From assembly GCA_963850295.1 (NCBI GenBank), contig CAWKKU010000014.1:334010-398009 (forward strand): a DNA stretch of 64,000 bases, in the 5' to 3' direction. The notes under the pieces are model-generated. The model searched no databases and was not told the origin of the DNA. It saw only the letters and a list, made by a program, of their open reading frames with translations. Source of the stretch: Vicinamibacterales bacterium (GTDB lineage Bacteria; Acidobacteriota; Vicinamibacteria; Vicinamibacterales; JAMQPK01). Below are positions 16,296 through 62,515 of this stretch, piece by piece (within the stretch, counting starts at the first letter, position 1; each line of letters opens with the position of its first letter). The position numbers and the translations under genes were made by a program.

Positions 16296-17955
16296 GCTAC
16301 CGCAAGTACAACGCGCGCACTGGACCGCACAGCCGGCGTTCGATGCCGTCGTCGCGTCGATTGCGATTGTCGTGCTCCCGCTTTTTGTTTACGGGTTGGG
16401 CAATACGTATCTGTGGCAGGACGAAGCGCAGACAGCGCTCCTCGGCCGGTCCGTACTGATCCATGGCGTGCCGATGGTGGGAGAAGGCGCGGAGAGCCTC
16501 TCGGCCGTGCTCGGGAAGGATGCAGGAATAGGCGGCGTCTATTTTCAGATCGCCTGGCTGCAGGCCTACGTCGAAGCGGCCAGCCTGGGTCTATTCGGCG
16601 AATCCAGCTGGTCTGCCCGTCTTCCGTTTGCCATAACCGGCTGGCTCTGCATTCCGCTCGCGGCGTGGGCGATGCGGGTTGCCGGATCGACCGTTCTCGC
16701 CGCTCGAATTGCCGCGTTATCGATCGCGCTCAGCGTTCCGTTCATCATCATCTCCCGTCAGGCGCGGTACTACGCGATGACGGCTGCGATCGTCCTCGTC
16801 ACAACCGGTGCTTATGCTGCGTTGATGCGCGCGGTGAAATCACCGCAACGACGGACGGACGCCGCGGCGTCTGCCTTTGCATTCGCGTTTGCCGCAAGCC
16901 TGCTCGTCGTGAGCTTCGACATCACTGCCATTGGCGTGCTGGGTGCGATAGCGTGTCATTGGCTGCTGTCCGCGCGGTCGAACGACGATAGGTGGAGCGC
17001 GACGTTCTGGTTGGCGTGGGCGCTGCCGTGCGTCGTGTTGGCAGCGTGGCTCGCGGCCAGCCTCACGGCCGCATCTCGCGCGGACAATGCCGGGCTTACT
17101 GCAATTCCGGGACGGCTGCAGTACGCCACGACCTACTACCTCGGGCAGATCAATTCGCACATTGTGCCGCTGCCGGTGCTGCTCCTGCTGATGCTGTTGC
17201 GCCGCGGCGCGCCGAACGATCGCAAGGCCGAAGCGGATGACAGCCGCAGGGCGGCGGCGCTGCTGGCGGCCGTCGCACTGGGTGGACTGGCCGGAACCTT
17301 GCTCTCACCGCACCGGTTCTTCCGCTACATCGTCCCGGTCTTTCCGGTTCTGTTGGCCTTGAGCGCCATCGGCATTGCAGCTCTGTGGTCGCTCGGACAG
17401 CGGATGCGCATTGGCGCCGCCGTGCTGCTCGCGGCGCTCGTGAGCACCAACGTGTTGTTCGTGTGGTCCCACGCCGGCCTCGAGGGAGTCGCCCGCGCGA
17501 CCGGCCTGGTGACCGTTCGCGAACGCGCATTCCACGCACGAGTGCCCATGGCGGACCTCATTTCGGAACTGCGCGATCCGCCACGTGGACCGGTGGCCGC
17601 GACGATTGAATATTTATTGCAACACGCGGGGCCCCGTGACGTGGTCGTCGCCGCGTACGGCGATCTCCCACTGAAGTTCCATACGCCATTGCAGGTGTAC
17701 GGCGGTGAGACCGGCGAACTACCGCCGCCGGACGTCGTGCCGCAATGGATCTGGCCGCGAGCGTTGAAGGTTTACTCGGAGGTACGGCCGGTAACCGACT
17801 GGATCGGAAGGGAACTTGAATCGGGCAGGTACTGGCGGGTGGAGTTGCAGGCGATCGATCGACGATGGGAGAACCGCGAAGATCCCGAAACGCACATCTT
17901 TTCGAATCCGGGCCCGCCCGGGCCGCGCGTGGTGCTCTACAGAGCGCGCGATTGA
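16285..17955 (+). CDS. Polytopic membrane protein, GT39/ArnT/PMT-like GT-C glycosyltransferase
   Basis: Start ATG 16285 or 16294. N-terminus IAIVVLPLFVYGLGNTYLWQDEAQTALLGRSVLIHGVP is typical of ArnT/PMT_2-type proteins. About 12 helices plus a C-terminal soluble region. The 3' end overlaps the convergent GT2 gene by 19 nt. Confidence 0.6.
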   Translation: MANMLPQVQRAHWTAQPAFDAVVASIAIVVLPLFVYGLGNTYLWQDEAQTALLGRSVLIHGVPMVGEGAESLSAVLGKDAGIGGVYFQIAWLQAYVEAASLGLFGESSWSARLPFAITGWLCIPLAAWAMRVAGSTVLAARIAALSIALSVPFIIISRQARYYAMTAAIVLVTTGAYAALMRAVKSPQRRTDAAASAFAFAFAASLLVVSFDITAIGVLGAIACHWLLSARSNDDRWSATFWLAWALPCVVLAAWLAASLTAASRADNAGLTAIPGRLQYATTYYLGQINSHIVPLPVLLLLMLLRRGAPNDRKAEADDSRRAAALLAAVALGGLAGTLLSPHRFFRYIVPVFPVLLALSAIGIAALWSLGQRMRIGAAVLLAALVSTNVLFVWSHAGLEGVARATGLVTVRERAFHARVPMADLISELRDPPRGPVAATIEYLLQHAGPRDVVVAAYGDLPLKFHTPLQVYGGETGELPPPDVVPQWIWPRALKVYSEVRPVTDWIGRELESGRYWRVELQAIDRRWENREDPETHIFSNPGPPGPRVVLYRARD

Positions 17956-18744
17956 GGGCGCGCGCGGCGCGCGAACAGGGACTGCGATTTCCACCCGGCG
18001 CGATACAGCAGATACCGGCCGAGCGCCGCGATCGTGCCGAACGCGTACTTCGTGCTGCGGCCGAGGGGAATACTGCTCGACTCGGGACCGTAGTGCGTCG
18101 GGACCGGCACCGCCCCAATGCGAAATCCGTGCGCGCGGGCCTGGACGAGGAACTGCTGATCGAACACGAAATCATCCGAGCACGCTTCGAAGTCGAGCGT
18201 CTCGAGCACGCGCCTGTGGTACGCACGATAGCCGGTGTGATACTCCGGCAGATTCAGGCCGAGCACGACGTTCTCCATGATCGTCAGGACTCGATTCGCC
18301 ACGTATTTGATCAACGGCATGCCGCCGGCGAGCACCTCTTCGCGGCGCCTGATACGCGACCCCAGCACGATATCGACGACATCGGCTTTGATGAAGCCTG
18401 CCATGTACGGCACGAGCGCGCCATCGTACTGATTGTCCGGGTGCAGCATGATCGACAATCTCGGCTTCGGTCTGAAGGGCCAGCTGATAGCAGGTCTTCT
18501 GGTTACCGCCGTAGCCGCGGTTATGCGGGTGCCGGTGCACCGTGATTCCGAGGCGGCGAGCGACGCCAATCGTATCGTCGGCGCTCGCGTCGTCGACGAG
18601 GATGATGTCCTCGCATGAACCCGGAGGCAGCCGGCGCAGTGTCGCCTCCAGCGTCTTCGCGGCGTGGTAGGCCGGCAGCACAACACACGCACGCAAATCG
18701 CGCACGGCCGGAAAGTGGTCGACTTCGGCGGCTCGCGGCGTCAC
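17937..18744 (-). pseudogene. GT2 glycosyltransferase (polyprenyl-phosphate sugar synthase / ArnC-DPM1-like), interrupted by one frameshift near 18450-18460
   Basis: The N-terminal half is in the 18172..18744 frame (VVLPAYHAAKTLEATL...DIILVDDASADDT...HNRGYGGNQKTCYQLALQTEAEIV). The C-terminal half is in the 17937..18692 frame (IMLHPDNQYDGALVPYMAGFI...GSRIRRRE...EYHTGYRAYHRRVLE). Removing 1 nt in GAGATTGTC-G-ATCATGCTG restores a continuous protein. The GTG start at 18744 is in a GTGA overlap with the upstream stop. Confidence 0.7.
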
Positions 18745-21532: not shown

Positions 21533-23366
21533 CAGCCGCCGCTCGCAGTGCGCGGCACCCGCAATGCAGCTCCGGAATCGCCTACGTCTTCGATCGAGAC
21601 GTGCAGACGCTTCAAACGGCAGCCATGCGCCACGATGAGCTGCCCGAGCTCTTCCTCCCGCTCGACGCTCAACCGTCTGCAGCTTACGAGCACCGTATCG
21701 ACTTCACCCCTTTTCATCATCCGATCAGCTTTGCGAACCCGCCGAGCACCTGATAGCCATGAACCCGGGTCCGATGCTTGAGCGCGTCGTCGTCGATGTA
21801 GCCGAGCACGCGATACGGGACCGTGCTGGCGCTGACTTCCCGCATGGCGACCACAGCGGCTGCCCCGGCGCCGTAGATGACGAGCCGGTCGCCGATCTGC
21901 CGCCGCCGCGCAACGAACTCACTGATGAGCCGGAACGACGCTCTGGAAACACTCAACAGGACGAAACAGCAATGCCCCGTAAATCACGAAAACCGTTCGA
22001 GAGTAGGTGCGATTCGGGAACAGCACCAGAAGCGCGGCGATACTGGTGCCGACGAACACTCCTTTCCCGAACACGACTGTGTCGATCAGGCCGAACAGGC
22101 GCCACACGCCCCGGTACGCGCCGACGATGAAAAGGGCGACGAATTGCGACGCAATGACGATGGGCAAGGACGTCAGGAACTCGCGGAAGTGCCCTTCGAA
22201 TTCCGGTCCTTCGAACCGCAGGCGATACGCGGCGTAATACGCCATCGAGATGAGCGCCAGGTCCAGGAACACCTCGGCCACCCGGCGCTTGTACATGAAC
22301 GTCACCAGAAGCGGGGTGGCGCCTCTGCGACGCAGCGCGCTGAGATCCGCGCCGTCATAGACGCGTACGTTGCCGAGATATACGGTGAAGACCGCAAGCG
22401 GCAACATCACCGCGAGTATCAGCAGCACGGACCAGCTGGTGTCGAGGGAACGCGCGAAATAGCCGGTGAGCCCGGTGATTGCCGCCAGTGACCACAGGAC
22501 GGCCACGGCCCGCTGCTCCGATAGGCCCATGGCGACCAGCCGATGGGACGAATGATCGCGTCCGCCTGTCGAAGCGGCCCGGCCGGACAGCCAGCGGGAC
22601 AGCGTCACCAGCGTCGTGTCGAGTATGGGAATGACCATCACGAGGATCGGCGCCGAGATTACTGACAGCAACGACGGCTGTGTGGCGTGTCCCGGTTCGC
22701 TGCCGAGCCCCATCACGGCGAGACTGAAGCCGAGGAACAAGCTGCCTGTGTCGCCCATGAAGATGGACGCCGGATAGATGTTGTATAGCAGGAAGCCGGC
22801 AGCGGCCCCGATCAGCAGCGTCAGGATAGAGCCCCTGATAGAAGACAGAGCTATTCGGCGCCGCCGAGGGCAACCCAGCCAGGAATGCTGTGCCGGCGAT
22901 TATCGCGATACCGGCGCAGAGGCCGTCCATGTTGTCGAGCAGGTTGAACGCGTTCGTGATGCCGACCACCCACATGATCGTGAGCAGGCTGTCGAGCGTC
23001 ATCGACTCGACCCAGTACGAACCTGTGGCCGAACAGCAGGAGCAATGACGCCAGTACGATTTGTGCAATCAGTTTCGTCGCCGGCTTGAGCGACATCACG
23101 TCATCGATGAAGCCGACAGCGGCCATGAGCGCCGCACAGGCCACGAGCACGGCATGGTGACTGAATCCCCCCGCCAGGCCGATTCCGGCGATCACCGGAA
23201 CGGCGACGGCCACGCCGCCAAGGAAGGGGGTCGACTGCTGGTGCCATCGATCGATCCTGGGCTTCGCGACATACCCGAACCGCAATGCCACCCGGCGGCA
23301 GAGCGGAACCAGCGCGGCTGAGGCCGTCATCGCGCCCACGAACGCCACGAGGTATGCGGTCGTCAC
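21532..23366 (-). pseudogene. WecA/MraY-family polyprenyl-phosphate HexNAc-1-phosphate transferase fused to a PglF/WbaP-type membrane + CoA_binding_3-like module; 3-4 frame changes
   Basis: Five segments in five ORFs and alternating frames:
- 22851..23366: GYVAKPRIDRWHQQSTPFLGGVAV...VGFIDDVMSLKPATK.
- 22355..23068 frame: [26 protein letters not shown].
- 21919..22758 frame: [22 protein letters not shown], then 4 TM helices.
- 21717..21956: LVIYGAGAAAVVAMRE...YRVLGYIDDDALKHRTRVHGYQVLG.
- 21532..21720: VDTVLVSCRRLSVEREEELGQL.
The last junction is an ATGA overlap, so it could alternatively be a gene boundary. Confidence 0.7.
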
Positions 23367-25851: not shown

Positions 25852-26996
25852 TACGACGCCGCCAGCAGTGCGCGGGCGCGATGTTGCCAGGTGTGCTGCC
25901 GTTCGTATTGCGAATACGCTGAGCTGGCGAGGCGGCGGGACAATGCGGCATCGCTCAACAGACGGTCGATGGCGTCCCCCCACGCATCGACGGCGTCGGG
26001 CGGGACCAGAAGGGCATTGGCGTCGTGAGACAGCACCTCACGAAGAACGGGAAGATCGGACGACACGATCGGTACACCGGCCGCCATGTACTCGAACATC
26101 TTCATCGGCGACATCCAGCGCGCGGTGTCGTATCGGCCAACACCGATAGACACCTTCCTCTGGTAGGGCATCAGCAGCACGTCAACGCATTGCGCAAGCT
26201 GAAGCGCTGACTGATGCGGCAGATGTCCGACGAAGATGAGGTTGCGCCGGCGATTGCGGGCCCGCCTGACGGCAATCTCTGCTTCATCTCCGCCAGCGGC
26301 GAGAAACAACACGTTGGGCCGGCGCTCGGCAAGCGCTTCAATCAGCTCCACGCCGCGGCCCGCATACAGATGTCCGACATACCCGCAGACTCCGTCCCAG
26401 GCCTCGCGCGCCGCCGGAACCAGTTCCTGCAGCTGCGGCCGGCGGCGGTCCCATGGCACCGGCGTGATCCCCGCCGGCGCCGCGTCGTGCAGAACCTGCC
26501 GTCGCGAGGGAGCGACGCCGTGCTCGGTAGCCACGAATTCCAGCAACTGGTGCGAAATGCTGACGACCCGGATGCCGGGCTGGCGAAGTACTGCCCGTTG
26601 CATCGCTCCCCTTACTCCGGTCTCGATGTCGTGCAACTCGAATATCAGCGGCCGGCGTGCCAGGACGCCAAGGATGTACGCCGCGTACAGGTTGCGACTG
26701 ATGACGAGTTGGGGCCAACGGCCGCCCGCAAGCCGGCGCACGGCAAGCGCGGCAATCCTGAGACTCAACGCGCGAGGAGAACGTGTAAATGTGGTGACAA
26801 ATCGAATGCCGTCGGTCGAGGTGCCGTACTGCCGCTCGATTTCGGCGGGAAGATCGGTTTCCCGAGCGAGACTGCGGCACGCGTACAGCGTGACTGACGC
26901 GCCGGAGTCGGCTAACGCTCGCGTCTGCATGATCACGTGGACTGAATTCGCGCTTCTGGAGGGGAGAGTGGACGGCGAGATGTAGTGAACGTCCAC
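25851..26996 (-). CDS. Glycosyltransferase, GT4 family
   Basis: The proposed GTG start at 26996 overlaps the upstream TAG by 1 nt (TAGTG). VDVHYISPSTLPSRSANSVHVIMQTRALADSGASVTLY; C-terminal SPMKMFEYMAAGVPIVSSDLPVLREV. Confidence 0.7.
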   Translation of the reverse strand: MDVHYISPSTLPSRSANSVHVIMQTRALADSGASVTLYACRSLARETDLPAEIERQYGTSTDGIRFVTTFTRSPRALSLRIAALAVRRLAGGRWPQLVISRNLYAAYILGVLARRPLIFELHDIETGVRGAMQRAVLRQPGIRVVSISHQLLEFVATEHGVAPSRRQVLHDAAPAGITPVPWDRRRPQLQELVPAAREAWDGVCGYVGHLYAGRGVELIEALAERRPNVLFLAAGGDEAEIAVRRARNRRRNLIFVGHLPHQSALQLAQCVDVLLMPYQRKVSIGVGRYDTARWMSPMKMFEYMAAGVPIVSSDLPVLREVLSHDANALLVPPDAVDAWGDAIDRLLSDAALSRRLASSAYSQYERQHTWQHRARALLAAS

Positions 26997-28181
26997 TACG
27001 CGATTTCGGCCACGGATTGGGCGTGATGTCCAATGCCTGGATATGTGAGGAAGCCCCACGGCAGCGCCCGGCCGCCATTCAGGGCCACATCCATCCGCGC
27101 CAATGCCAGCAATCTGAAATAGGTGTCCCAGAGGTTCGACTCGTCCCAGCCGCGCCCGTCAGCGCTCCAGTGCGTGTGAATCTCGTCATGTTTGGGGCGC
27201 TGCAAGGTGAGCGCATAGCGAAGGCGCTCGACGAAAAGGGACGGACGGTTCCACGCCGACACGACCTGGTGACCAAACTTCTGAACATTCGCGATGGTGC
27301 GGGGACGCACGTACCTCGACTCGCAGAATCCCCCTTCTTCCCCCTGCTGATCGAAAATAGACGCCCGCGGTTCTCTCGAGCAGCGAGCGAACGCCGGCGT
27401 CCGGAACACTGCCGCCCGCCGTGAGCACGAACACAGCGTCGTAGTCGTAACAGCTGCCGCCCCCCGGATACGGTGCGAAATGTCCCGACGGATCGGCGAG
27501 TGTCGCCACAGCCTGCCTGGCTGCCGAAAGCCGCGGATTGTCGACCTCGAGATATTCGAAAATTTCGTACTGGTGATACCCGTTCTGGAACTGCAGGTGC
27601 GTCATTCCCTGATCGCGACCCCAGAACCCGAATCTGTTCATGTGCGCGAGATGCAACTCCACCCATGTGTCGAGGCCGGCGGCGGTATCGCCGAGGAATC
27701 GGCGGGCGTGAATCAGGACCACTGCGAGACACATTGCGAGGTTGCCGCTCTGGGGCCGGCCATGCAGCGCACCAACCTCGTCCAGGACAGCACGAACATC
27801 GACCGGCAGGATCGGCTGGATGAGGTCCTCGAGCGGATCCTCGTCGAGACTGCCGAGGGCCGACAGCGCGCTCAAGGTGAGCGTGAGAGCCTGCATGAGC
27901 GGTTTGTCCGTGATGGCTTGGCCGCCTCGCCGCTCGTGAAAATAGGACCGTAGATCGGCGCGAAGCTTCGACGCCAACAGGCCTCGATCGGCCGGCAACT
28001 GGTCGACACCACCGAGCAACGCCGCGGCAAGCACCGCTGTGGGGCGGGCAAACAAACTGGGTGTTCCCGAGTGGACCAGGGCAAAATCGCCTTGGCCGAT
28101 CTCAGACGCCCGGACGAACATCGCGGCCCGTTCGCGCGCGACATTCAGTCGTTCAGCGGTGAGGACAGTGCTGGGTGTCAC
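26996..28181 (-). pseudogene. Alpha/alpha-toroid (prenyltransferase / terpene-cyclase-repeat-like) protein, one frameshift near 27360-27385
   Basis: The N-terminal part is in the 27186..28316 frame (possible GTG start 28181, just after the upstream stop), containing ...QNGYHQYEIFEYL...HFAPYPGGGSCYDYDAVFVL. The C-terminal part is in the 26996..27409 frame (IFDQQGEEGGFCESRYVRP...DESNLWDTYFRLLALARM). The family assignment is tentative. Confidence 0.4.
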
Positions 28182-40185: not shown

Positions 40186-40204
40186 CGTGGTAAATGTCCT
40201 TTCT

Positions 40205-40932
40205 TCAGGAGGTGCCCCAGTTGAGATGGTCCAGCCGAACGGCTCCGGCGGCCAGCAGGGCTTCGGCGGCTTCGAGATCGTGAGGGTCGTCCACCTCCAG
40301 CTCGTACGGCGGGTCGATCACCTGTGCGTAAGCTGGTTCCGCGTAGAAACTGCCGCCGCGCTCCAGCGCATCGGTGCGGGCAGCAATCAGATTACCAAAC
40401 GCCCACAACGCCGGTTTTTCCTGCTTGTGTCTGGCTATGTTCCGCTCGGCCGCGAACAAGAACGACACTCTGCCGTCGGATCCAGTCGTTCGCTGGTTCC
40501 ACGCGTGGCACTTATGCGTGACGCGCACCACGTTGTGAACCGACGCTGCCTCCGGCCGGTTCTCGAGAAGGTCAGCAGGGCGGAGATGTGCTCTGGAAGA
40601 AGAAACGGGCTGGAGGGCTGAACCAGGACAATGACGTCGGGCCTGCTGCCCGGCTGAAGCGACGCGAGGAAGTCGCGCGCGACGTCATCCACCCTCGCCT
40701 CATCTGTCGCAAGATGATCGGGTCGCCGAACGACATCGACCCCCAACTGGCGCGCTCGCGCCGCGATCGGTTCGCTGTCGGTCGAACACACGATGCGGCC
40801 CAGAGACGGGCTGGCCTTAGCCGCGGCGATACCGTAATCGATCAATGGGCGACCCGCCAGTGGCGCAATGTTCTTCAACGGTATGCCGCGCGAGCCGCCA
40901 CGCGCCGGAATCAAGGCCCAGTGGGTTGTCAT
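40205..40932 (-). pseudogene. neuA: Acylneuraminate (CMP-nonulosonate) cytidylyltransferase, NeuA family, one frameshift near 40565-40585
   Basis: N-terminal part in 40435..40932 (ALIPARGGSRGIPLKNIAPLAGRPLIDYGI...VQPSSPFLLPEHISALL). C-terminal part in the 40205..40531 frame (DLLENRPEAASVHNVVRVTHKCHAWNQ...GNLIAARTDAL...DDPHDLEAAEALL). Confidence 0.7.
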
Positions 40933-40938
40933 TGACGC

Positions 40939-49299: not shown

Positions 49300-49301
49300 T
49301 G

Positions 49302-50519: not shown

Positions 50520-50534
50520 ACCTAGAAGAGTATC

Positions 50535-51555
50535 TCAACTTGACTGGCCGGCGTCGATTGCCGTTCGCAGTTCATCTGCGGATGCCGAGGCCGGGCCGAA
50601 TTTCGCGACCGTCACACCGGCCGCGGCGTTGGCGAGCGCTGCCGCCTCGACAAAATCGGCTCCTGCAGCCATCGCCAGAGCAAGCGCTGCGACAACGGTG
50701 TCGCCGGCGCCTGTGACATCGGCCACCTCTCTCGCCATTGCCGGCAGATACCCTTCGACGGCATCGCTCAGGAGCCACATGCCCGACTCGCCGCGCGTGA
50801 TCAGCACCGCTTTACATCCCACGCGTGTGCGGATAATCCGCGCTGCCCGCCTGGCGTCGCCATTCGAACGGATTCGCATCTGAGCGGCTGCCTCGGCCTC
50901 AGCATTGTTCGGCGTAATCACCGAAGCCCCCGAGAAGTACTCGAAGTGCCCAACCTTTGGATCGACCACCAGCGGAATCCTGAGATCGGCGCACAACGCC
51001 ACGGCCTTCGCCATCAGGGGCTGCGTCACCGATCCCTTCAAGTAATCAGAGATAACGAGCGCCCGCGCCAGACCGCGCTCCGTGCTCCATCGCGGAGACC
51101 AGCGAGTCCTGAACGTCGCCGGTCACTTCCCGATCGCTTTCGTAATCGATGCGCGCGACCTGCTGATGCCGGCTGGTCACGATTCTGACCTTCCTGGTCG
51201 TCGGGCGCTGGCGGTCGACGAGAATGCGGGCGGCGTCGATACCCGAGCGGTGCAAAGACTCGGTGAGCGTTGATCCGTGTTCGTCGGCACCCACGACACC
51301 AGCCACCGTGACCGAACCTCCCAGAGCGCGAACGTTGGCCGCGACATTGGCGGCGCCGCCGATTCGGAATTCCTCGCGATCGAACTCGACAACGGGAACA
51401 GGCGCCTCAGGCGAGATGCGCGACACCCGGCCGACGATGAAGTGGTCGAGCATGACGTCGCCAACGATCGCGATGGGCAGTCCGGCAAATCCATCGATGA
51501 GGCGTCGCGCACGATCGCTCTCGATTGCCGGCAGCAGTTCGTCAGTTGTCGTCAT
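50535..51555 (-). pseudogene. hldA: D-glycero-beta-D-manno-heptose-7-phosphate kinase (RfaE/HldE domain I, PfkB family), one frameshift near 51060-51085
   Basis: N-terminal half in 51046..51555 (IAIVGDVMLDHFIVGRVSRISPEAPVPVVEFDREEFRIGGAANVAANVRALGG). C-terminal half in the 50535..51041 frame, which reads ALVISDYLKGSVTQPL...VVDPK...ITPNNAEAE...LITRGESGMWL...DVTGAGDTVVAAL upstream of its first Met. Confidence 0.75.
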
Positions 51556-52243
51556 GACCGCCCGATCTCGAACGTCTGGCGCTCAGGCCAGTTTTCAGCC
51601 GCTGGACGAAACGCTCGAGCAGGTTCTCCTCGAAAAACGACCGGCCATCGTTGACCTGCTCGACAGGCACGGGCAACCGGCCGGCCCAACGATCGGGAAA
51701 CCGGCTGGCCACGCAAAGGTGGTAGATCGGCGAGTTCCGGTGCTGTGACGACACCAGATAGATGGTCGTGAAGCCGTTCGCGGCGAACAGCTGCCTGACG
51801 CCACCACTCATGAATCGCCAATAGTCACCGAAGCTCTCGCTGGCGTGCTCTTCCTGGAACGCCGGCACCACGACGAGGACGACATCCCGCGTCATATTGC
51901 AGAGGTTTGAGACGGCTTTGAATACGTCGAAAATGTGCTCGAGTGTCGTGTGATTGAATATCACGTCGGCGCATCCGTGCAGCTCCGGGGGCAGATTCCC
52001 TTCCAGGTTCAGCGAGATATCCCCGCCGGAAATGTCACCGCGATGGCCGCCGTAATTGGTCAGCGTATATGAACGCGCGTTGGAGAAGTAGTGGCGATAC
52101 TTCCCGCCTTCTTTGTCATCGTCACGCCATCCGCTGACATTGATCACGTCACCATGGAACAGCGGCGCAAGCTCGCGCAGCACACTGTTCGACCAGAGGC
52201 GTGGCGCTCGAAATCTGCGACCCGGTTGAAAACGCATCAGCAT
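51542..52243 (-). CDS. Methyltransferase-like protein (class I SAM fold), weak call
   Basis: 233 aa. GDVINVSGWRDDDKEGGKYRHYF...ADVIFNHTTLEHIFDVFKAVSNLCNMTRDVVLVVVP. Resembles small methyltransferase-type proteins of polysaccharide loci; the glycine-rich SAM loop is atypical. Confidence 0.4.
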   Translation of the reverse strand: MLMRFQPGRRFRAPRLWSNSVLRELAPLFHGDVINVSGWRDDDKEGGKYRHYFSNARSYTLTNYGGHRGDISGGDISLNLEGNLPPELHGCADVIFNHTTLEHIFDVFKAVSNLCNMTRDVVLVVVPAFQEEHASESFGDYWRFMSGGVRQLFAANGFTTIYLVSSQHRNSPIYHLCVASRFPDRWAGRLPVPVEQVNDGRSFFEENLLERFVQRLKTGLSARRSRSGGHDDN

Positions 52244-52249
52244 CGCCGG

Positions 52250-53781
52250 CTACCAGGCAGCGGCTGCCGGTTCGACTGGTGTCGTGACATTGCGCAGGCA
52301 AGCGTGCGCGTAGTCGGCGAGCTTGCGGATTTCCTCCGCATGCGTAGCCTGGCCGCTCGCGTGAACGCGCTGCTTCCCGAGCAGCACGGAATAGAGATTC
52401 ACGCTCTCGGACACTTCGAACACGGCGGCCACGTAGGCAGCCAGCGCGGCTTCATCGTGTTGATGCTCGGCGAGCAGCGTCGCGATGAGCGACGGCAGCT
52501 CGCGAAGGTCTGCGCAGCGCCGGACCATCGTCGGCGGCAGCGCGTTGAAGGGACGTCGCCGAATGTCATCGCCGGCTTCTGCAGGATCACGCGCCTCGAG
52601 CGCAACGGATCCGGTGATGACGGCAACGAGGGAAGCTGGCGAATGAGATCGCGCGCCTGCATCTCGGGCCTGGCAACGGCGACGCGCGGGATGTTGAGGA
52701 GCTTGCGGTAAAACGACTGCGATGCGCTTGCCCACCATCCACGGGTGCTCCTTGACGACGAGCTGCATGTCAATCGGCAGGCTGATCGCAAGCTGCCGGA
52801 TGACTTCGATCTGATTCAGAAATGGCCGGCCGTACACGAGGAGCGATACCTCCGGCTCCGCGTGCAGCGGGTAGAACACATAGCGCGATGTGCCGCAGGC
52901 GCTCCTCGGTGACGTAGTGCGCGCTCATCCGCCTGGCCGTCAGCCGGGCTCGCGCCGGGTTGACTATCGCCGCAAACATGCAGGCTGCGTAGCGGGTCGG
53001 GAACATGGTTGTCGGCCCGGCTTTCACTCTTCAGGTAGTCGTAATAGTTCCTGATAACACGCAGCGACGGCTTTCGCGGCCGACTCGCGCCGCGCATTCA
53101 CCACGAGCGCGGTCCCTGCGGAGGGGCGGCACCACGCCTTCGTATCAGTCCGTGGTCCTCGCGGACGCGGCGGATGTACTGCCGCGCGTCTTCGATGTCG
53201 CGGCGAACCGCCGGCGAGCGCTCGGCGATACGCATGCAGAAACTCCGGAGCAGGATCGTTGATGGCCGACCCGAAGATCACCCGGTCGGCAATTCGTGTC
53301 GGCCGGAGATTGAGGACGCGGATGCCGCGCGATCGCGCGAAGAGATATGCCAGATAGTCGAGAAACGTGACGCAGATGAACCCGATGACAACCTCGGGTT
53401 TGAGCGCGTCGAACAGCCGTTCGGTCGCAACCAGCCCCTCTTGCAAGATGCAGAGGAGTTGGTCATCGGTAAAGCGACGGCGGTAATCCTGCGTATTGGT
53501 GCAGTCCGGCCCCATGAACAGCCGCCGATCGGCGACGATGGCAGCGAACAGGTCTGGCTTCGCCACCCAACTGACGCTCATACCGCGCGAGCAGCTCGCG
53601 ATCGGGCTTGGCATGTCTCCTGGCCGTGACCTCCCATTCCTTCACGATGCAGGTGGCCGGCAGTTTCGAAATCGGGGGCTCTCGCGAGCCACTGCCGATA
53701 GAACATGCTGTCGGCAACGATGTAGCCGGCGCGTTCAACTTCAATTTTCTGTGAGAGCGCTGCCCGCAATCCGTCGAACAT
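52250..53781 (-). pseudogene. KpsS/KpsC (Capsule_synth)-like gene, heavily disrupted (at least 6 frame changes); paralogue of 29991..31544
   Basis: Collinear segments are scattered over at least 6 ORFs in alternating frames:
- MFDGLRAALSQKIEVERAGYIVADSMFYRQW (53578..53787).
- CIVKEWEVTARRHAKPDRELLARYERQLGG (tail of 53463..54518).
- DYRRRFTDDQLLCILQEGL...KPEVVIGFICVTFLDYLAYLFARSRG (53024..53614).
- RVIRNYYDYLKSE (52816..53097).
- FYPLHAEPEVSLLVYGRPFLNQIEVIRQLAISLPIDMQLVVKEHP (52250..52879).
- SFYRKLLNIPRV (52399..52791). Confidence 0.65.
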
Positions 53782-53817
53782 GCGCAAGACTCGTCCCCTG
53801 CGTGGCGAACAGGATTC

Positions 53818-54827
53818 TCATCGCGCGTAGGACTTCGGGGCTGAAGTGGTGAGGTTCTGCTCAATCCATTGGACGGTGCGTTCGAGGCCGGCCCGAAACG
53901 GCACCTGGCTGCGCCACCCGGTGAGCTCCGTGATGCGCCGGTTGTCCGCGACAAGCCGTTGAACCTCGCTCGGGCCCGGTCTGACGCGGCCTGCGTCGGT
54001 TTCGAACGGGCACGCGCCGATGAACGATCTCGCAGAGCAAGCTCCACCGTTTGCTTGATCGACCACTCTGTACCCGATCCGATGTTGACGACCTGGCCTT
54101 CGGCCTCACGGCACAGCGCCAGCGCGAGCATGCCGGCGGCCGTGTCGGTCACGTAATTGAAGTCGCGAGTGGGGTCGAGCGAGCCGAGCTTGAGGACCTC
54201 GCATCCTGCGAGCAGCTGGGCTGCGATCGTCGGGATGACGGCGCGCGCTGTCTGCCGCGGCCCGTATGTGTTGAAGGGACGGGCAATCACGACCGGAAGA
54301 TCGAACGACCGATGGAAGCTCTCTGCCAGCTTGTCCGCGGCAATCTTTGTCGCCGAATACGGTGACTGGCCGACGAGCGGGTGAGACTCCGGAATCGGCA
54401 CCTGCTGTGCCGTGCCGTATACCTCGGAGGTCGACACGTGCACCAGTCTGACGAGCGTCGAGCTCTCGCGGCACGCCTGAAGCACGTTCAGACGCGCCGA
54501 CGATATTGGTGTCGACATAGGAGCGCGACGCGTCGTAGCTGTACGGAATGGCGATGAGGCTGGAGAGGTGGAAGACGTACTCGCACCCGTTCACGCCTTG
54601 CCGGACACGCTCGATGTCGCGGATGTCGCCAGTGAGGATCTCGACCTGGCGGCGAACGTGCCTGCCGGGACGTCACGCAGCCAGCCGATCTCGTTCCACG
54701 AGTTGTACAAGACCAGACGCGCGCACGCGCGCTCCGGCGGCGACCAGCAGCTCGACGAGGTGACTGCCGATGAAGCCGTCCGCGCCGGTCACGAATACGC
54801 GTCCGTCCCTCGAATCGTTTCACTCAT
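53818..54827 (-). pseudogene. LegB-like NAD-dependent sugar-nucleotide 4,6-dehydratase/epimerase, about 5 frame changes
   Basis: The original ATG at 54827 still sits in an ATGA overlap with the upstream stop. Segments in different frames:
- VFVTGADGFIGSHLVELLVAAGARVRA.
- LVLYNSWNEIGWLRDVP.
- VEILTGDIRDIERVRQGVNGCEYVFHLSSLIAIPYSYDASRSYVDTNIVG.
- LNVLQACRE...HVSTSEVYGTAQQVPIPESHPLVGQSPYSATKIAADKL...ARPFNTYGPRQTARAVIPTIAAQ.
- RPGPSEVQRLVADNRRITELTGW.
The blocks match my recollection of C. jejuni LegB. Confidence 0.7.
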
Positions 54828-55885
54828 CGTCTGCGTCCCGGCTCGGCGAACAGCGCGCGCGCCCTGTCGAGATCGTCGGGTGTCCCGACGTCGCTCCAGT
54901 ACTCGTGCACGGGGAATACGGCGACGGGCAACCCTTCCTCGAGGCATCGCTGAATCAGGTCGGTGATGTCCTGGAACGTCGACTCGTGGAGCAGATTCAA
55001 TAGCGTCGGTGAAACCGCGTAGATTCCCGCATTGCACAGAAACCTCTGCGACGGCTTTTCCGTCAGTCCGGTGACGAATGCCCCTTCGGCCTGCAGTACT
55101 CCGTAAGGGATGTTGACCCGGTAATCCACCGCCGCAACGGTGATATGCGCTCCGTGCGACCGGTGGAACGCGAAGAGACTGCCGAAGTCCGACGTCGTCA
55201 GGATGTCTCCATTCATGACCAGCACCGGCGACTCGGGACGCTCCGGCAGCAACGACAGCGCCCCCGCCGTACCGAGCCGCTCCTGCTCGCGAAGATATCG
55301 GACCTCTATACCGAAATCGGCGCCATCGCGGAAATGCTCCTCGATGACGTGTGCGAGATAGTTCACCGACAGGTAGACCCGCTTGATGCCGGCACGTGCG
55401 AGCCGCTCAATCTGACGCGCCAGCATCGGCATGCCGCCAATCTCGAGCATCGGCTTCGGCACTTCATGCGTCATCGGGCGCAGCCGCGTTCCTTCCCCGC
55501 CGGCCATGATCACCGCGAACGCGAACCCGCGCGCATCGTCGATCGGCTCCTCATGGCCCAGGTCGGTGAGGTGAACCACGCGCTGGAACACGCCGGCCGC
55601 ATCCACCAGCGGGAGCGCCATGACGTTTGCGCGTCGAAGCAGGTCGATCAGGTATCCGTGCGTGCTGTTGACCTGGCCGACGACCGGATTCGGATTCATC
55701 GCACGCGACACCGGCGTCTCGAGCGTGCCGCCCGCGAGGAGACAGCGGCGCACGTCGCCGTCGGTCAGCGTGCCGACGACCCGGCCGCACTCGTCGGTCA
55801 CGATGGCGATTCGACGCTGGCTCGTTTCGATGGCGTTGACGGCATCGACGAGCAGCGCGACAGGTTGCAGCGGCCGCTCACTCAT
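54824..55885 (-). CDS. CBS-pair + nucleotidyltransferase (PtmE-like sugar-1-phosphate nucleotidylyltransferase)
   Basis: Intact. The likely start is ATG 55885 (MSERPLQPV...); the 28 codons upstream in the same frame look like the C-terminus of the preceding NeuC-like gene. CBS region RRIAIVTDECGRVVGTLTDGDVRR; NTP-transferase VIMAGGEGTRLRPMTHEVPKPMLEIGG...LGTAGAL...VMNGDILT. Confidence 0.75.
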   Translation of the reverse strand: MSERPLQPVALLVDAVNAIETSQRRIAIVTDECGRVVGTLTDGDVRRCLLAGGTLETPVSRAMNPNPVVGQVNSTHGYLIDLLRRANVMALPLVDAAGVFQRVVHLTDLGHEEPIDDARGFAFAVIMAGGEGTRLRPMTHEVPKPMLEIGGMPMLARQIERLARAGIKRVYLSVNYLAHVIEEHFRDGADFGIEVRYLREQERLGTAGALSLLPERPESPVLVMNGDILTTSDFGSLFAFHRSHGAHITVAAVDYRVNIPYGVLQAEGAFVTGLTEKPSQRFLCNAGIYAVSPTLLNLLHESTFQDITDLIQRCLEEGLPVAVFPVHEYWSDVGTPDDLDRARALFAEPGRRR

Positions 55886-55907
55886 TGAGTATCGCGCTGC
55901 CAGAGCT

Positions 55908-57106
55908 TCACCGCGAAGGGTCATCCGTTTGCGCAGGAGACGCTGGTCGATTGCAACGGTCGCCAGCACATCGGCAATCTTGGGACCGGCATCGCCGAGA
56001 TAATAGGGATTGTCGGCGCCGCGGCAGCGCGCCCGAAACTCTTCGTCGAACAGGCACCGATCGAATCGCCTGCCGGATCGACGAGCAGTCGTATCCGACG
56101 TCGATCACGTTGCCGCCTCGCAGGCGCCCGTCCTGCCGGGAGCCGATATTCACCGTCGGGCACTGGAAGGCGGGCGTCTCCTTGATGCCCGAAGATGAGT
56201 TGCCCGCACACACGACGCGCCGGCTCGGGTCCTGCGCGAGCGCGAGAACTCCATGGTAAAGATGCCGCCCCAGTGAGCGGTGTATCTGCACGTTGTCCAG
56301 ATTTCTCGCAGCGAACGCCTCGAGCTCCTCGATGATCGCCTGCCCGCCGGCGTCATTGTTCGGATACGTGACGATCACCTGAATGCCGTCCGCTGCCAGC
56401 CCGGCGATCGCCTCCAGCGCCGGGCGCACCTGGTCGCGCGCGCGGTCGAACTCCGTCGTCACGGAATGCTGAGTGAACAGGACGACGCCGCGGGAGAGAT
56501 CCAACCCCAGCCGGTCGCTCACTTCCCGGGCGGTCGCAAATCGACCCTCCTGAATGAGATCGATCGCCGGAAAGCCGACCGTATGGACCCGCCACGGTTC
56601 TTCGCCGAGCTCCAGAATGCGGTTCGATCGCCTGACGTGTTGGTGGTGAAATGCAGATGCGACAGCTTCGTCATCGCGTGCCGAACCGAGTCGTCCAGCG
56701 CACCGCCTTCCGTCAGGTCCCCGCCTTCCACGTGCGCAGTTGGAATGTTCATCTGGGTCGAGGCGATCACCGCGGCAAAGCCCTCGAACCGATCGGCATA
56801 GACCACCATGAAGTCGGGTTTCATCTCCGCGAGCACGCGGCTGACGGCAAGAACGCCGGAACCAATCGCCTGCGCCGTCGCCACGAGCGATGAGGCATCC
56901 ATCTCGATCTTGATTTCCGCATCGACGCGAAATCCGTCAGCGTGGATTTCGTCGAGCGTCCGGCCGAAGTTGCGATCGAGATGCGCGCCGGATACGAGAA
57001 GCCGGTAGTCGAGTGCCGGATGACGGTTCACGGCGCGAAGAATCGGATACTGCAGGCCGTATTCGGCGCGATTGCCGGTGAAAATCGCGATCGTGCGGCT
57101 GCGCAT
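55908..57106 (-). pseudogene. NeuC/LegG-like hydrolysing 2-epimerase, at least 2 frame changes; 3' end ambiguous (55885-55910)
   Basis: Start ATG 57106 (MRSRTIAIFTGNRAEYGLQYPILRAV...VVYADRFEGFAAVIASTQMNIPTAHVEGGDLTEGGALDDSVRHAMTKLSHLHFTTN). There is a shift near 56630-56645 to RILELGEEPWRVHTVGFPAIDL...VTYPNNDAGG...GNSSSGIKETPAFQCPTVNIGSRQ. A second shift near 56050-56070 leads to LFDEEFRARCRGADNPYYLGDAGPKIADVLATV, which then runs in-frame into the next ORF. Confidence 0.7.
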
Positions 57107-57952
57107 CACCGAGGCACCGGCGAAGTGGACAGCAGAAACGCAAGACCATCGCGCAGTCCTACGCGTGCCTGCCAGCCGTATTCTCGAGCACATGCGCCCG
57201 GCGATCGGCCACGATCGTGGACACACGGCCGCTGCCGCGTGGCCACGACCTCCCGGCCGCTTTCACCGGCGATTTCCAGCGCCAGCCGGGCCACGCTCGC
57301 CAATCGACGTCCCAACGCCGGTCGCGAGATTGAAGATGCCCTGCGCCGCCGGCGCGGTGGCGAGCTCGGCGAACCTTCCGCCGCATCGTCCACCCAGAGA
57401 AAGTCACGTACCGGAATGGTGTGCATGACGACGAGCGGCCCCGGCCCGGGAATCTGACCGAGAATCGTGCTGATCACGTTGCGCGATGACATACCCGATC
57501 CGTACAAGTTGGAAAGGCGCGCGACTGCCCCGCGTCGGCGATTCGAGCACCGCGAGCTCAGCCGTGCGTTTGAGGCGGGTATATTCATCGCTGACGTACA
57601 CGGCGTCATTCGGCATGTGCGGATGTGCTCGATGCGTCGCCGTACACCGCCGTCGACGAAGCGTAGATGACACGGGCGTAAGAACGTCCGAACAAGGTCT
57701 GTAACTGTTCGAACGGCGCTGGATTCGTAGGGAGCTCCCATGGCCGCAACCTTCGTACGCGAGTCGCCTCCTCTGCCAGATGGATGAGCACGTCACCCGC
57801 AGGGGTCGCTGCGTAGCTGTCGACGCGAACGGCATCGGCCATCGGCTGTCGTGAAACCGGCATGCACTCGGACGCCGCTGCGATTGCGCCAGCGCCCGAA
57901 CGACTGCACGCCCCAGGAAGCCCGATGCGCCGGTCACGACGACGGTTACCAC
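57106..57952 (-). pseudogene. Small NAD-dependent epimerase/dehydratase-family gene, at least 3 frame changes
   Basis: The GTG at 57952 overlaps the upstream TAA (GTGGTAA). Segments VVTVVVTGASGFLGRAVVRALAQS, DVLIHLAEEA...RVIYASSTAVYGD, VYVSDEYTRLKRTAELAVLE and RLSNLYGSGMSSRNVISTILGQI...VRDFLWVDDAAEG lie in three frames. Confidence 0.55.
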
Positions 57953-58775
57953 GCGCTCAGCCCGCCGTCGACGATAAAACGCTGTCCCGTGCAGTACCGC
58001 GACGCATCGCTGGCGAGGTACACCATCGTGCCCACGAGATCCTCGGGGTTCGCCATCCTGCCCATCGGCGTTCGATCCGCATACCGGCGGACGAACTCGG
58101 GGTCTTGTCCGTTGTAAACGCCGCCGGGACACACCGTATTCACGCGGATGCCGGATCGCGCCCAATAGGTTGAAAGCCACAGCGTCAGCCCATGCACGCC
58201 AGCCTTGCTCGCCGAGTACGGGGCAAAGGACGAGAACGGCATCCCTTCGTAGATTCGATGGTCCGGAGCGACGACGCCATAAATACTCGCCGACGTTGAT
58301 CAGGCTCCCGCCACCAGCCGCCAGCATGCGCTTGCCGCCTTCGCGGGCGACCAGAAATACGCCCGTGAGGTTGGTGCGAAGCACTTCGTCCCACAAAGCG
58401 ACCGGGTAATCCTCGAACCTGGCAAACACGTCGCCGGTGCGCAGAAGATGCTCGCCCGTCGCCGCCGCGTTGTTCAACACGACGTCCACCCGTCCGAACC
58501 GTTGAACGGCGGTGTCGAAGAGCTTCCTGACATCGTCTTCGCTGCGCACGTCGCAGGCGACCGCGACCGCAGGAGTGTCGAACTCGCGCGCCAGCGTCGC
58601 GGCCTGCGCGGCCGGATCGCATTCAGCCAGATCGGCGAGCACCAGCGAAGCGCCGCGCTCGGCGAACGCCCGGCAATAGCATGCGTCCGAGGACGCCGCC
58701 GCTGCCCGTGATTACGATCACGCGCGAGCGGACCTCGAGGAGATCGCGCGCGGGCGCGGGTACGGCGTCAGTCAT
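57946..58775 (-). pseudogene. Short-chain dehydrogenase/reductase (PtmA-like), 2 frame changes
   Basis: The ATG at 58775 is in an ATGA overlap with the upstream stop. RVIVITGSGGVLGR, then a shift near 58680 to YCRAFAERGASLVLADL...VDVVLNNAA...TNLTGVFLVAREGGKRMLAAGGGSLINVG. A second shift near 58285-58295 leads to SIYGVVAPD...YSASKAGVHGLTLWLSTYWARSGIRVNTVCPGGV...GQRFIVDGGLSAW. Confidence 0.65.
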
Positions 58776-59476
58776 GCCGGCAAACCCATGCGCCGGCGCA
58801 GCAGGAAGGAAACGAGCTCGAAATCGAAGTCGCTGTCGATGTCGAGGCTCTTTTCCTGACCGATGTCGTACCCTTGCGTGCAGCCGGAGAGCAGACCCGT
58901 ACCGCGCCGGATGTATGCGGGAGAAAGCACGTAAATAGACGCGACGTGCTCCAGCACGCGCGGAGCGTCCTGCCGCCGCACGATCGGGCGCGGAAGCGGC
59001 TTGCAGATCCGCTGGCAGCCGGCCTCGACTTCGAGCATGTTGAAGTACGGATTCTTCCGCGCTTCGCAGACGGAGAACACGGCATCGACGCCTGCCGAGA
59101 CAAACTGCGCGAGGGCGCGGCTGATGTCGTCCACCTCACGCAGCGGCGACGTGCAATCGAGATCCACGTAGACGTCCACCGGCACGCCGTAATGCCGCTC
59201 GCACGCCTCGAGCGCGTGTTTCCACACATCCCATTTGCCGGCCGTGTCGTTGGCGAGCGCGGCAGGGCGGATAAAGGGAACCTCGGCGCCGTAATCGCGG
59301 GCAACGTCCGCGATGGCTTCGCTGTCGGTTGATACCACGACTCTGTTGATCTCCGGACAGGCCTTGGCCTGTTCGATGCTCCAGGCAATCAGCGGCTTGC
59401 CGAGCAGCGGGCGGAGATTCTTGCCGGGCAGTCCCTTCGATCCTCCGCGCGCCCCGATGACACAGACAATATTCAC
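58772..59476 (-). CDS. neuA: Acylneuraminate (CMP-nonulosonate) cytidylyltransferase, NeuA/LegF-like
   Basis: 234 aa, intact; GTG start in a GTGA overlap. VCVIGARGGSKGLPGKNLRPLLGKPLIAWSIEQA...VVVSTDSEAIADVA...DCTSPLRE. Confidence 0.8.
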   Translation of the reverse strand: MNIVCVIGARGGSKGLPGKNLRPLLGKPLIAWSIEQAKACPEINRVVVSTDSEAIADVARDYGAEVPFIRPAALANDTAGKWDVWKHALEACERHYGVPVDVYVDLDCTSPLREVDDISRALAQFVSAGVDAVFSVCEARKNPYFNMLEVEAGCQRICKPLPRPIVRRQDAPRVLEHVASIYVLSPAYIRRGTGLLSGCTQGYDIGQEKSLDIDSDFDFELVSFLLRRRMGLPA

Positions 59477-60497
59477 GACGCTGAAGCCAGCGAGAACGCC
59501 GCGGTCACGTCAGCGGGTCGCACGAGGCGCTCTTCGGCGGCGGACTGATGGCAGGCCAGCGCTGTTCGAAGCGCGGCAACGCCGTCCGCGAGCGACGAGA
59601 GCGGCGCCAGCGACGAATCGGAAAGCCGCGCGACGAAATGCCGCATTTCCGTCAAAAAGAGCTCATTGCGGGCAAAGCTCGCGGGCACCTGATGAGCAGT
59701 TCGGGTGCCGTTCCCGGGCGTGGCGATCGAGATGGTGCCATCCACGTAGTTCCAGCTCACCACACCCCGGCTGCCGACCACCTCCAGCGTTCTCCCGTAC
59801 ACCGGGCGGACGTAGTCCATGTGAACCTGTGCCAGCAGACCACCGGCCGTGCGCAGGCCGACCTGAGCGATCGCTTCCGACTCGATTTGAAGACGCTCCA
59901 CATGCGCCGTCATCGCATGCACGGCTTCAATCGGACCGAACAGCCACGCCACGAGGTCGAGCTCGTGCACCAGGTCGAAAATCGCTCCGCCACAGTCGGC
60001 GCTCGCGCTGTAGCTGCGGCGGTGGTCCTGCAGCGGCCGCCAGTCGGGCAAGTGCTGGCCGACGACGGCCCGGCAATAGAACAGATCGCCCAACTCCCCT
60101 GCGTCGAGAAATGACTTCAGCCATACCAGGTTCGGATGCAGGCGCAGCATGAAGCCGGTCTCGACGACGAGCGCGCGATCTTCAGATTCGCGGACCAGAT
60201 CGTCGATACCTGTCAGTGAGTGAGACAGTGGCTTTTCGATGAAGAGGGCACGACCATCTCGTGCGCCGCGCAGCGCGATATCGAGATGCTGATCGGTCCG
60301 GTTGGCAATGACGATCGCATCGGGTGCGGCGGCGAACGCGGCGTCCAGGTGGTCGAACGACCGGACATTTTCGCGCCACGGCTCGGTCCGGGCTTCGCGC
60401 CGGTAACTGTAGGTGGAAACGTTCTCGCCAAGGCTCAGCAGGTTGGCAATATGCCGCGCCCCGATCGAACCAGTGCCGACCACCAGGACGTTGTGCT

Positions 60498-60501
<4 letters not shown>
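59473..60501 (-). CDS. Gfo/Idh/MocA-family NAD(P)-dependent oxidoreductase (PtmF-like position)
   Basis: 342 aa, intact; ATGA overlap. MKHNVLVVGTGSIGARHIANLLSLG...ALFIEKPLSHSL. Confidence 0.75.

Positions 60502-62515
<2,014 letters not shown>

Follow-up and report, generated by a model that had tools for sequence, protein, structure and literature searches.

Introduction

Indel errors in genomes and metagenomes assembled from long reads, as treated in work on proovframe and Polypolish and in R10.4 benchmarking, leave adjacent open reading frame (ORF) fragments that jointly match a single orthologue; they lie scattered along a contig, and removal of the indels restores the genes. According to two published studies (PMC8812927, PMC9262707), what usually persists in long-read assemblies is errors in homopolymer length. 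All of these features except the last recur in the current study, which concerns a block at positions 52250-58775 of the window (the whole 64,000-nucleotide stretch of a Vicinamibacterales contig that was analysed), where five minus-strand genes are frame-broken and a CBS-domain sugar-1-phosphate nucleotidyltransferase gene (CBS-NT) between them is whole. Unlike the usual long-read errors, which concern homopolymer length and, in Nanopore data, lean towards deletions, the events of this block avoid homopolymers, are insertions in about 90% of cases and show an enrichment of about 30-fold within a single 6-kb patch.

Errors of a different kind, which arise from collapsed haplotypes or mixed strains, are informally familiar from the polishing of diploid genomes and metagenomes. 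The block resembles such mixed-strain consensus errors in that extra bases at strain-variable sites copy an alternative allele beside the retained one, and in that a gene-content breakpoint flanks the patch on one side. It differs from them in that this signature is carried by only 16 of 35 insertions and that such errors do not predict a spared CBS-NT, and the block is known from sequence alone. Genuine pseudogenes have been described in Burkholderia leaf-nodule symbionts (Danneels et al. 2018, PMC6054270), where several independent indels per gene are likewise found and neighbouring genes are hit too; in contrast to the block, deletions there outnumber insertions (396:300), mean indel sizes are much larger, nonsense codons are present and constraint is relaxed. 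Concerning function, the Leg/Ptm legionaminic-acid-type pathway of Campylobacter bears a likeness to the module of the window, in gene content only.

Results

Extent of the frame breaks

Codon-usage Viterbi segmentation divided nearly all of the window into segments the size of genes, closed by stop codons, and between 52197 and 58785 it returned fragments of 84-560 nt. In tblastn searches with orthologues, each of the five broken genes was spread across two to three frames. Indels private to the window, placed by alignment with four to eight intact relatives, comprised 35 insertions (33 of 1 nt and two of 2 nt, 37 nt in total) and four 1-nt deletions, all within 52555-58681. The 39 events in the 6.5-kb block compare with three in 15.8 kb of equally alignable flank (p=6e-18); they are clustered (overdispersed), and their overall rate is 0.6%. 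These three lines of evidence agree with the claim of the initial annotation that five adjacent minus-strand genes are broken, and its counts of frame changes (2, at least 3, at least 2, about 5 and at least 6, in the direction of transcription) are valid as lower bounds, the events found being 2, 11, 4, 9 and 13, respectively. Its description of the damage as mostly of the indel type was likewise borne out, given that the indels are nearly all 1-nt insertions and that nonsense codons number zero.

The products of the broken ORFs, including their out-of-frame tails, occur verbatim in a public protein collection under the same 409,761-nt NCBI/ENA contig, and the breaks are thus part of the deposited record and were not introduced into the window afterwards. 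Exact-protein look-ups returned nothing beyond this single contig, so that no second assembly of the strain was found by this route, while a scan of genome contigs yielded only distant relatives (at most 69% amino acid identity), which are usable for frames and not for single bases. Rfam and tRNA scans were empty.

The broken genes and their spared neighbour

All genes of the block lie on the minus strand and are described here in the direction of transcription. The first, a short-chain dehydrogenase/reductase (SDR, adh_short; 57946..58775), carries two one-base insertions, at about 58681 and 58292; tblastn with the orthologue of one relative (L052) spans three frames, and the corrected ORF has the 275 aa of that orthologue. 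It had been proposed as a PtmA-like SDR, of which the SDR assignment stands by generic NCBIfam SDR matches, while the likeness to PtmA is only loose (134 bits, where the cut-off is 350). The small gene of the NAD-dependent epimerase/dehydratase fold (57106..57952) contains ten insertion events (11 nt) and one deletion, and these 11 events form the densest cluster, at 13 per kb. Its corrected ORF is free of stops and equals its orthologue at 278 aa, and the orthologues carry the Pfam domains Epimerase/RmlD_sub_bind.

The NeuC-type hydrolysing UDP-GlcNAc 2-epimerase (55882..57109) is interrupted by four one-base insertions, at 56636, 56627, 56062 and about 55887, with tblastn frames of -1/-3/-1. 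Through the last of these, an extra base within 55886-55888, the ATGA stop overlap is lost and the tail is fused in frame to CBS-NT; the gene is broken as first described; its end had been set at 55908, and the true end is 55882, in the ancestral ATGA overlap with CBS-NT. The corrected protein of 407 aa scores 373 bits against TIGR03568 (NeuC_NnaA), above the cut-off of 236.

CBS-NT itself (54824..55885) is intact, encodes 353 aa and contains no private indel. It was matched by one full-length tblastn HSP, with 94% amino acid identity to L052 and a dN/dS of 0.05, and its protein is identical to a database protein (P0001) from the NCBI/ENA contig; the earlier statement that this central gene is uninterrupted is hence correct. 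Downstream of it, the LegB-like NAD-dependent 4,6-dehydratase (53818..54827) contains eight insertion events (9 nt) and one deletion, and its corrected ORF of 333 aa, the length of the orthologue, scores 443 bits against TIGR04180 (LegB), just below the cut-off of 475. The last gene, Capsule_synth (KpsS/KpsC-like, PF05159; 52250..53821), contains 11 insertions and two deletions; its corrected ORF of 520 aa is without stops, and its orthologues measure 515-520 aa and carry PF05159. That it is broken was recognised previously, with a start at 53781 that has to be moved to 53821. At 54827, 57952 and 58775, inspection of the sequence also confirmed the claimed overlaps, which are of the ATGA and GTG...TAA kinds.

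The wider module includes the NeuC-type epimerase, the LegB-like dehydratase, the CBS-nucleotidyltransferase (of PtmE-like architecture, when compared with Campylobacter Leg/Ptm), the SDR, a NeuB-type synthase, a CMP-sugar synthetase and a GFO/MocA oxidoreductase, arranged in a single operon-like series whose stop and start codons overlap. Of the NCBIfam models, NeuC_NnaA alone exceeds its cut-off, and those for LegB, NeuB and PtmA fall short of theirs; NeuB_NnaB (TIGR03569; 363 bits against 400), like LegB, is nevertheless the best match. Neither an aminotransferase nor an acetyltransferase was identified inside the block.

Comparison with relatives and signs of selection

Eight independent related contigs from at least five soil metagenome samples, at 83-90% nucleotide identity, have the same gene order with all genes intact. 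None of the 39 events is present in any of these eight relatives in the alignment; shared interruptions, which according to the initial annotation would have pointed to old, fixed pseudogenes, were thus not encountered. Removal of 37 bases and padding of four restored ORFs of 275, 278, 407, 333 and 520 aa, exactly the lengths of the orthologues, all of which end on the ancestral stop and none of which contains an internal stop codon. The broken genes have dN/dS values of 0.08-0.20, which match those of their intact counterparts: comparisons between the relatives give 0.06-0.23 for these genes, and undamaged genes of the window lie at 0.05-0.18. Window-specific substitutions are not raised and are still biased towards third positions (71:129 for positions 1+2 against position 3, compared to 98:222 on the branch of relative L057; Fisher p=0.25). 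No sign of relaxed selection was therefore seen in the five broken genes, whether as nonsense codons, raised dN/dS or an excess of lineage-specific changes.

Indel spectrum and the tandem-allele pattern

The ratio of insertions to deletions (35:4, all of 1-2 nt) departs strongly from the 300:396 of real Burkholderia pseudogenes (binomial p=1.5e-9). No link of the events to homopolymers was found: 25% fall in runs of at least 2 nt, where chance predicts 38%, and 3% in runs of at least 3 nt, where it predicts 9%; 27 of 36 inserted bases stand in runs of length 1, and neither of the two 5-nt runs, the longest in the block, carries an event. Homopolymer slippage, be it natural or derived from sequencing, is ruled out by these run-length counts. 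A strand asymmetry of the inserted base was dropped as alignment-dependent, with T:A at 14:1 in one alignment and 8:3 in another. Creation of CpG by the insertions seemed enriched by eye, the placement of insertions being ambiguous.

In 16 of the 35 insertions, the added base and the one beside it correspond to the two alleles that relatives carry at a single alignment column. This tandem-allele pattern, observed in 46% of insertions, was obtained in 17% when insertions were placed at random and realigned (p=7e-5), and in 20%, after realignment, of a control matched for trinucleotide context (p=6e-4). It is missing from over half of the insertions; where present, it suggests that the consensus was derived from more than one strain.

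Frameshifts outside the block, its edges and the spared gene

Sporadic frameshifts occur outside the block at 18.4, 21-23, 27.4, 40.6 and 51.1 kb; in addition to the gene at 51.1 kb, at least four or five others in the window carry single frameshifts, and the genes described here are all on the minus strand. Just downstream of the block, a PfkB-family sugar kinase (50535..51555) is split by one extra G, placed by alignment at about 51069, its Pfam profile positions 5-108 and 167-297 lying in two adjacent ORFs and tblastn returning two frames. The CMP-sugar synthetase CTP_transf_3 (40205..40932) has a single-base deletion at about 40567-40570, seen as one gap in 4.3 kb of blastn alignment to L052 and as two tblastn frames, and a hypothetical gene (26996..28181; 395 aa in relative L055) is split by one extra G at about 27362. 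The genes frameshifted at 27362, 40567 and 51069 are intact in relatives. Further along, a GT2 glycosyltransferase (17937..18744) is split near 18450, as seen from a Viterbi frame switch and from Pfam Glycos_transf_2 positions 1-76 and 83-166 in two overlapping ORFs of different frames, and Glycos_transf_4, a polyprenyl-phosphate sugar-phosphate transferase (21919..23366), occupies at least three frames by Viterbi and Pfam, with Pfam positions 3-44 and 64-104 in different ORFs and a single 613-aa gene as its L055 orthologue. The background frameshifts of this part of the window lie at about 18450, 20980 and 22800-23000. Because of these single-event frameshifts elsewhere in the window, the edges of the block are less sharp than they had appeared, and the sharp boundaries described earlier were overstated; the accompanying view that the process was not uniform is upheld by the clustering of events and the event-free CBS-NT.

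The lower edge of the patch adjoins a gene-content breakpoint, the gene hyp233 (51542-52243) being missing from L052 and L057, which fits mis-recruited reads that covered only the shared module. The CBS-NT ORF has its nearest events 3 nt and 12-15 nt beyond its ends, and under uniform placement the longest event-free gap has a p of about 0.03, which is of modest significance. This exact sparing is only weakly explained and is predicted by none of the error models tested. The nucleotide divergence of CBS-NT from relatives equals that of its neighbours, and strain mixing alone consequently fails to explain the sparing. Correction by a gene-aware tool of the proovframe kind was also considered as its cause and is judged unlikely, since the database homologues of the neighbouring genes are equally good and these genes would have been corrected too.

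Discussion

The findings of this study indicate that the breaks very probably constitute a localised consensus-error patch, in a contig with a low background of single-base indels, and not biological decay, a reading drawn from the sequence. Sporadic single-base frameshifts along the contig are typical of a long-read-derived consensus (10.1101/2021.08.23.457338). Over the stretch from about 52.5 to 58.7 kb, a consensus or polishing step would have inserted a superfluous base at about 35 sites, and the same step would have dropped one base at four sites. As the most likely mechanism, we infer that reads of more than one closely related strain piled up over the shared gene module, and that at some strain-variable positions both alleles, rather than a chosen one, would have been written side by side, at a gain of one base per position. 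The source organism most probably possesses an intact legionaminic-acid-type nonulosonate/capsule module, like its relatives.

A consensus error need not involve strain mixing, as random errors of an insertion-prone long-read technology could have entered where depth was very low or where a gap was filled by one or a few uncorrected reads. The dominance of insertions and scarcity of substitutions resemble the error profile of raw PacBio CLR reads (about 8% insertions, 3% deletions and 2% substitutions; proovframe preprint, 10.1101/2021.08.23.457338). The clustered and overdispersed events, the sporadic indel background across the window and the insertions without the tandem-allele pattern, more than half of the total, would also be accommodated, whereas the enrichment of that pattern (46% against 17-20%, p=7e-5 to 6e-4) is unexpected, the 9:1 ratio is more skewed towards insertions than raw CLR and a rate of 0.6% is far under that of a single raw CLR read, all of which renders purely random errors unlikely. 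Recent inactivation had been offered by the initial annotation alongside an indel-error patch, and it is the latter that survives the spectrum, the lack of stops, the dN/dS values and the tandem alleles. In bacteria, inactivation or phase variation frequently affects loci for surface glycans, and a genuine, very recent pseudogenisation of five nonulosonate/capsule genes, with CBS-NT kept by selection, would agree with breaks that belong to the deposited record and with a central ORF spared right to its edges. Such an event is very improbable, as 9-13 independent hits per gene would need long neutral evolution, yet the signals of selection are unchanged, and the ratio of 35:4 stands against about 0.76:1 in real pseudogenes. 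Mutation-accumulation studies place spontaneous indels in bacteria at roughly a tenth of substitutions, whereas here indels exceed any excess of substitutions; in addition, the events have neither repeat nor homopolymer context, none is common to the relatives, and natural mutation gives no reason for the tandem-allele signature.

The indels might also be real as a localised, insertion-only mutational burst in this 6-kb glycan module, for example if error-prone repair or recombination of an unknown kind acted on a DNA heteroduplex between diverged strain alleles and wrote both in tandem, with selection keeping only the CBS-NT ORF, a scenario that we regard as hardly credible. Programmed recoding or phase variation, whereby the frameshifts would be decoded or switched by the cell, has as its sole point in favour that the genes belong to the surface-glycan class, which is known for slipped-strand phase variation. 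With up to 11 shifts in one gene of 847 nt, with homopolymer and short-repeat tracts missing at the sites and with no shift conserved in the orthologues of the eight relatives, it retains next to no probability and is effectively refuted by the missing repeats and the missing conservation.

If the block is indeed a consensus artefact, annotation of the public contig would yield five apparent pseudogenes together with several spurious ORFs whose tails are out of frame, and spurious products from the block have already entered protein databases. For mixed-strain consensus errors in metagenome-assembled genomes, the tandem-allele signature may serve as a read-free diagnostic, its parts being an extra base identical to the allele of a sister strain, the lack of a homopolymer link, the lack of stop codons and an unchanged dN/dS. 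In biological terms the finding is minor, in that the nonulosonate/capsule module of the organism is most likely as ordinary and intact as that of its soil relatives.

Frame breaks in the block

Viterbi segmentation by codon usage, for which the window's own long ORFs served as the training set, resolved nearly the whole window into gene-sized segments with 3' ends at stop codons. Within 52197–58785 it returned pieces of 84–560 nt, whose coding signal gives out hundreds of bases short of the following stop. In tblastn searches with orthologues from distant and then close loci, each of five genes was found to be split across two or three frames and the CBS-nucleotidyltransferase (CBS-NT) gave a single full-length match, bearing out the initial annotation, which had described five frame-broken genes around an intact CBS-NT. 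Its start/stop overlaps at 54827 (ATGA), 57952 (GTG...TAA) and 58775 (ATGA) are likewise present, while two of its gene limits required amendment: the NeuC-like end lies at 55882, not 55908, and the Capsule_synth start at 53821, not 53781. One base inserted shortly before the CBS-NT ATG destroys the ancestral ATGA stop and joins the NeuC-like and CBS-NT frames.

With the intact CBS-NT as query, a protein search retrieved one identical sequence, P0001, encoded on a single 409,761-nt NCBI/ENA contig, and further relatives at 84–95% identity. Five broken ORF products, out-of-frame tails included, occur verbatim in the public protein collection and attributed to that contig, and the breaks were therefore not made by cutting out the window.

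Comparison with related loci

Eight contigs (L052–L059), from at least five samples of farmland, forest and other soil metagenomes, formed the comparison set. At 83–90% nucleotide identity to the window, they share its gene order (NeuB, GFO/MocA, CTP_transf_3, adh_short, small epimerase, Epimerase_2, CBS-NTP_transferase, LegB-like epimerase, Capsule_synth, (hypothetical), PfkB), and every gene they carry there is intact.

The multiple alignment of 52555–58681 revealed 35 insertions (33 of 1 nt and two of 2 nt) and four 1-nt deletions private to the window, each in cleanly aligned, conserved surroundings; none is shared by any of the eight relatives. On the minus strand, two events fall in adh_short (57946–58775), 11 in the small epimerase (57106–57952), four in the NeuC-like gene (55882–57109), none in CBS-NT (54824–55885), nine in the LegB-like gene (53818–54827) and 13 in Capsule_synth (52250–53821). 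Removal of the 37 inserted bases and padding of the four deletions restores five unbroken ORFs of 275, 278, 407, 333 and 520 aa, their lengths being exactly those of the orthologues, and all five end on the ancestral stop and are free of internal stop codons. Pairwise blastn against L052 also gave compensating +1/−1 pairs, 4–5 nt apart, in intact genes (59893–59897, 59649–59653 and 55002–55007); the multiple alignment shows that these pairs are not window-private, and they probably reflect quirks of aligning variable codons.

The damage extends beyond the block, although sharp boundaries were described initially, and the contig as a whole bears a low indel load. In the flanking 15.8 kb that are equally alignable to the relatives, three single-base events each split a gene that is intact there: an inserted G at about 51069 in the PfkB-family kinase just downstream of the block (50535–51555, minus; 336 aa in relatives), a one-base deletion near 40567 in the second CTP_transf_3 gene, a CMP-sugar synthetase (40205–40932, minus; 242 aa in L052), and an inserted G at 27362 in a hypothetical gene (26996–28181, minus; 395 aa in L055). 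The context of the last insertion, GC[G]TCT, recurs at the block insertions 54492 and 54717. Elsewhere in the window, Pfam profiles are split across two or three frames in a GT2 gene (17937–18744, minus) and a Glycos_transf_4 gene (21919–23366, minus), and the Viterbi segmentation places a candidate shift near 20980 in a GT1 gene (20152–21532). Event density is 6.4 per kb in the patch versus 0.19 in the flank (~30-fold, p = 6e-18). The background events weaken the argument from sharp boundaries.

The glycan island

The window (G+C ~63%) is in essence one large island of glycan-biosynthesis genes, predominantly minus-strand, with numerous GT1, GT2 and GT4 glycosyltransferases and methyltransferases, two Wzy_C-like proteins, two Capsule_synth genes, three NeuB paralogues, two NeuC-type epimerases and several CMP-sugar synthetases. 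Neither tRNA genes nor Rfam families turned up in scans of the window. Rfam hits are thus also lacking at 14429–15012, a stretch of ~580 nt between divergent genes that has no coding signal and is one of few non-coding gaps. A 985-aa protein with PA14 and sulfatase domains (1327–4284) lies at the island edge.

When corrected, the broken module resembles a nonulosonate pathway of legionaminic/neuraminic type, accompanied by a KpsS/KpsC-like capsule transferase. The family labels given initially are reasonable and only partly demonstrable: the NeuC_NnaA model passes its NCBIfam cut-off, LegB and NeuB are best matches with scores just under theirs, and the block SDR is a generic SDR by NCBIfam and no clear PtmA. 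Three NeuB-type synthase paralogues (42101–43138, 43914–45317 and 60498–61538), two NeuC-type epimerases and three CMP-sugar synthetases lie within 23 kb (38800–45320 and 55880–61540), a multiplicity suggesting that the island encodes two or three nonulosonic-acid pathways in parallel.

Compared with L052, the window has three extra gene cassettes (47053–50535, 43139–44957 and 51535–52260), containing a 737-aa Wzy_C-like protein with a radical SAM/SPASM enzyme, a Methyltransf_24 gene with the third NeuB, and a 233-aa hypothetical gene, respectively; in L055, a Glyphos_transf gene is relocated between adh_short and the small epimerase. From strain to strain, the locus is thus a mosaic built of modules.

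Discussion

The frame breaks are real in the public record and, on the comparative evidence, are very probably a localised consensus artefact. Very recent inactivation, one of two readings offered initially, is unlikely, with several independent tests speaking against it. The dN/dS of the corrected genes against L052 is 0.08–0.20, compared with 0.06–0.23 for the same genes between L055 and L052 and 0.05–0.18 for intact window genes. In a three-taxon comparison, the damaged genes carry fewer window-specific substitutions than the L057 branch and keep the third-position bias (71:129 versus 98:222 for L057; Fisher p = 0.25). Counting on the corrected genes, as had been proposed, gave 39 indels against at most ~15 substitutions that could be neutral, with no stops and no substitution excess; in mutation-accumulation work, natural substitutions exceed indels, the reverse of what is seen here. 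Curated multi-hit pseudogenes of high-GC Burkholderia have 300 insertions and 396 larger deletions (means ~4.5 and 19 nt; PMC6054270), whereas the patch has 35 insertions to four deletions, of 1–2 nt only (p = 1.5e-9). Events also avoid homopolymers (25% versus 38% by chance in runs of at least 2, 3% versus 9% in runs of at least 3), by which slipped-strand mutation and phase variation are ruled out. Recoding can, in effect, be discounted as well. What speaks for genuine pseudogenisation of the five genes is that CBS-NT is spared closely to its ORF edges, the nearest events lying 3 nt before its ATG and 12–15 nt after its stop. The longest event-free gap, 1076 nt, has p ~0.03 under uniform placement, although events are overdispersed (dense at 52.55–54.81 and 57.19–57.89 kb, sparse at 54.8–57.2 kb), making long gaps somewhat likelier than this implies. 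CBS-NT is no less divergent in nucleotides from the relatives than its neighbours, and none of the error models tested predicts a gap matching its edges so closely; mainly for this unexplained sparing, we keep a very small probability for the biological reading.

As to the kind of artefact, homopolymer errors, the commonest residual long-read error (PMC8812927, PMC9262707), are disfavoured by the same avoidance. We favour strain mixing, with low-depth, insertion-prone reads as its main rival. PacBio CLR raw errors (about 8% insertions, 3% deletions and 2% substitutions; proovframe preprint 10.1101/2021.08.23.457338) are, like the patch, insertion-dominated and substitution-poor. More telling than this likeness is a tandem-allele signature in 16 of the 35 insertions, where the added base and the one beside it match the two alternative alleles found in the relatives at one homologous column; at 54492 the window reads GCGC-G-T-CTGAAC, whereas at that position T occurs in three relatives and G in four. 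Simulated random insertions, realigned alike, gave the signature in 17% (p = 7e-5), and a control preserving trinucleotide context in 20% (p = 6e-4). Natural mutation would have no reason to copy a sister-strain allele beside the resident one. Under strain mixing, reads of two related strains would have piled up and consensus or polishing would have kept both alleles at variable sites. Foreign reads may have been recruited solely across the shared module, which would fit the lower edge of the patch, adjoining a gene-content breakpoint (the hypothetical gene 51542–52243, absent from L052 and L057). The background indel load favours a shared origin of all these events in an error-prone consensus. 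Caution is warranted over the broken genes of the public contig, and a by-product of this analysis is a read-free diagnostic for such consensus-error patches.
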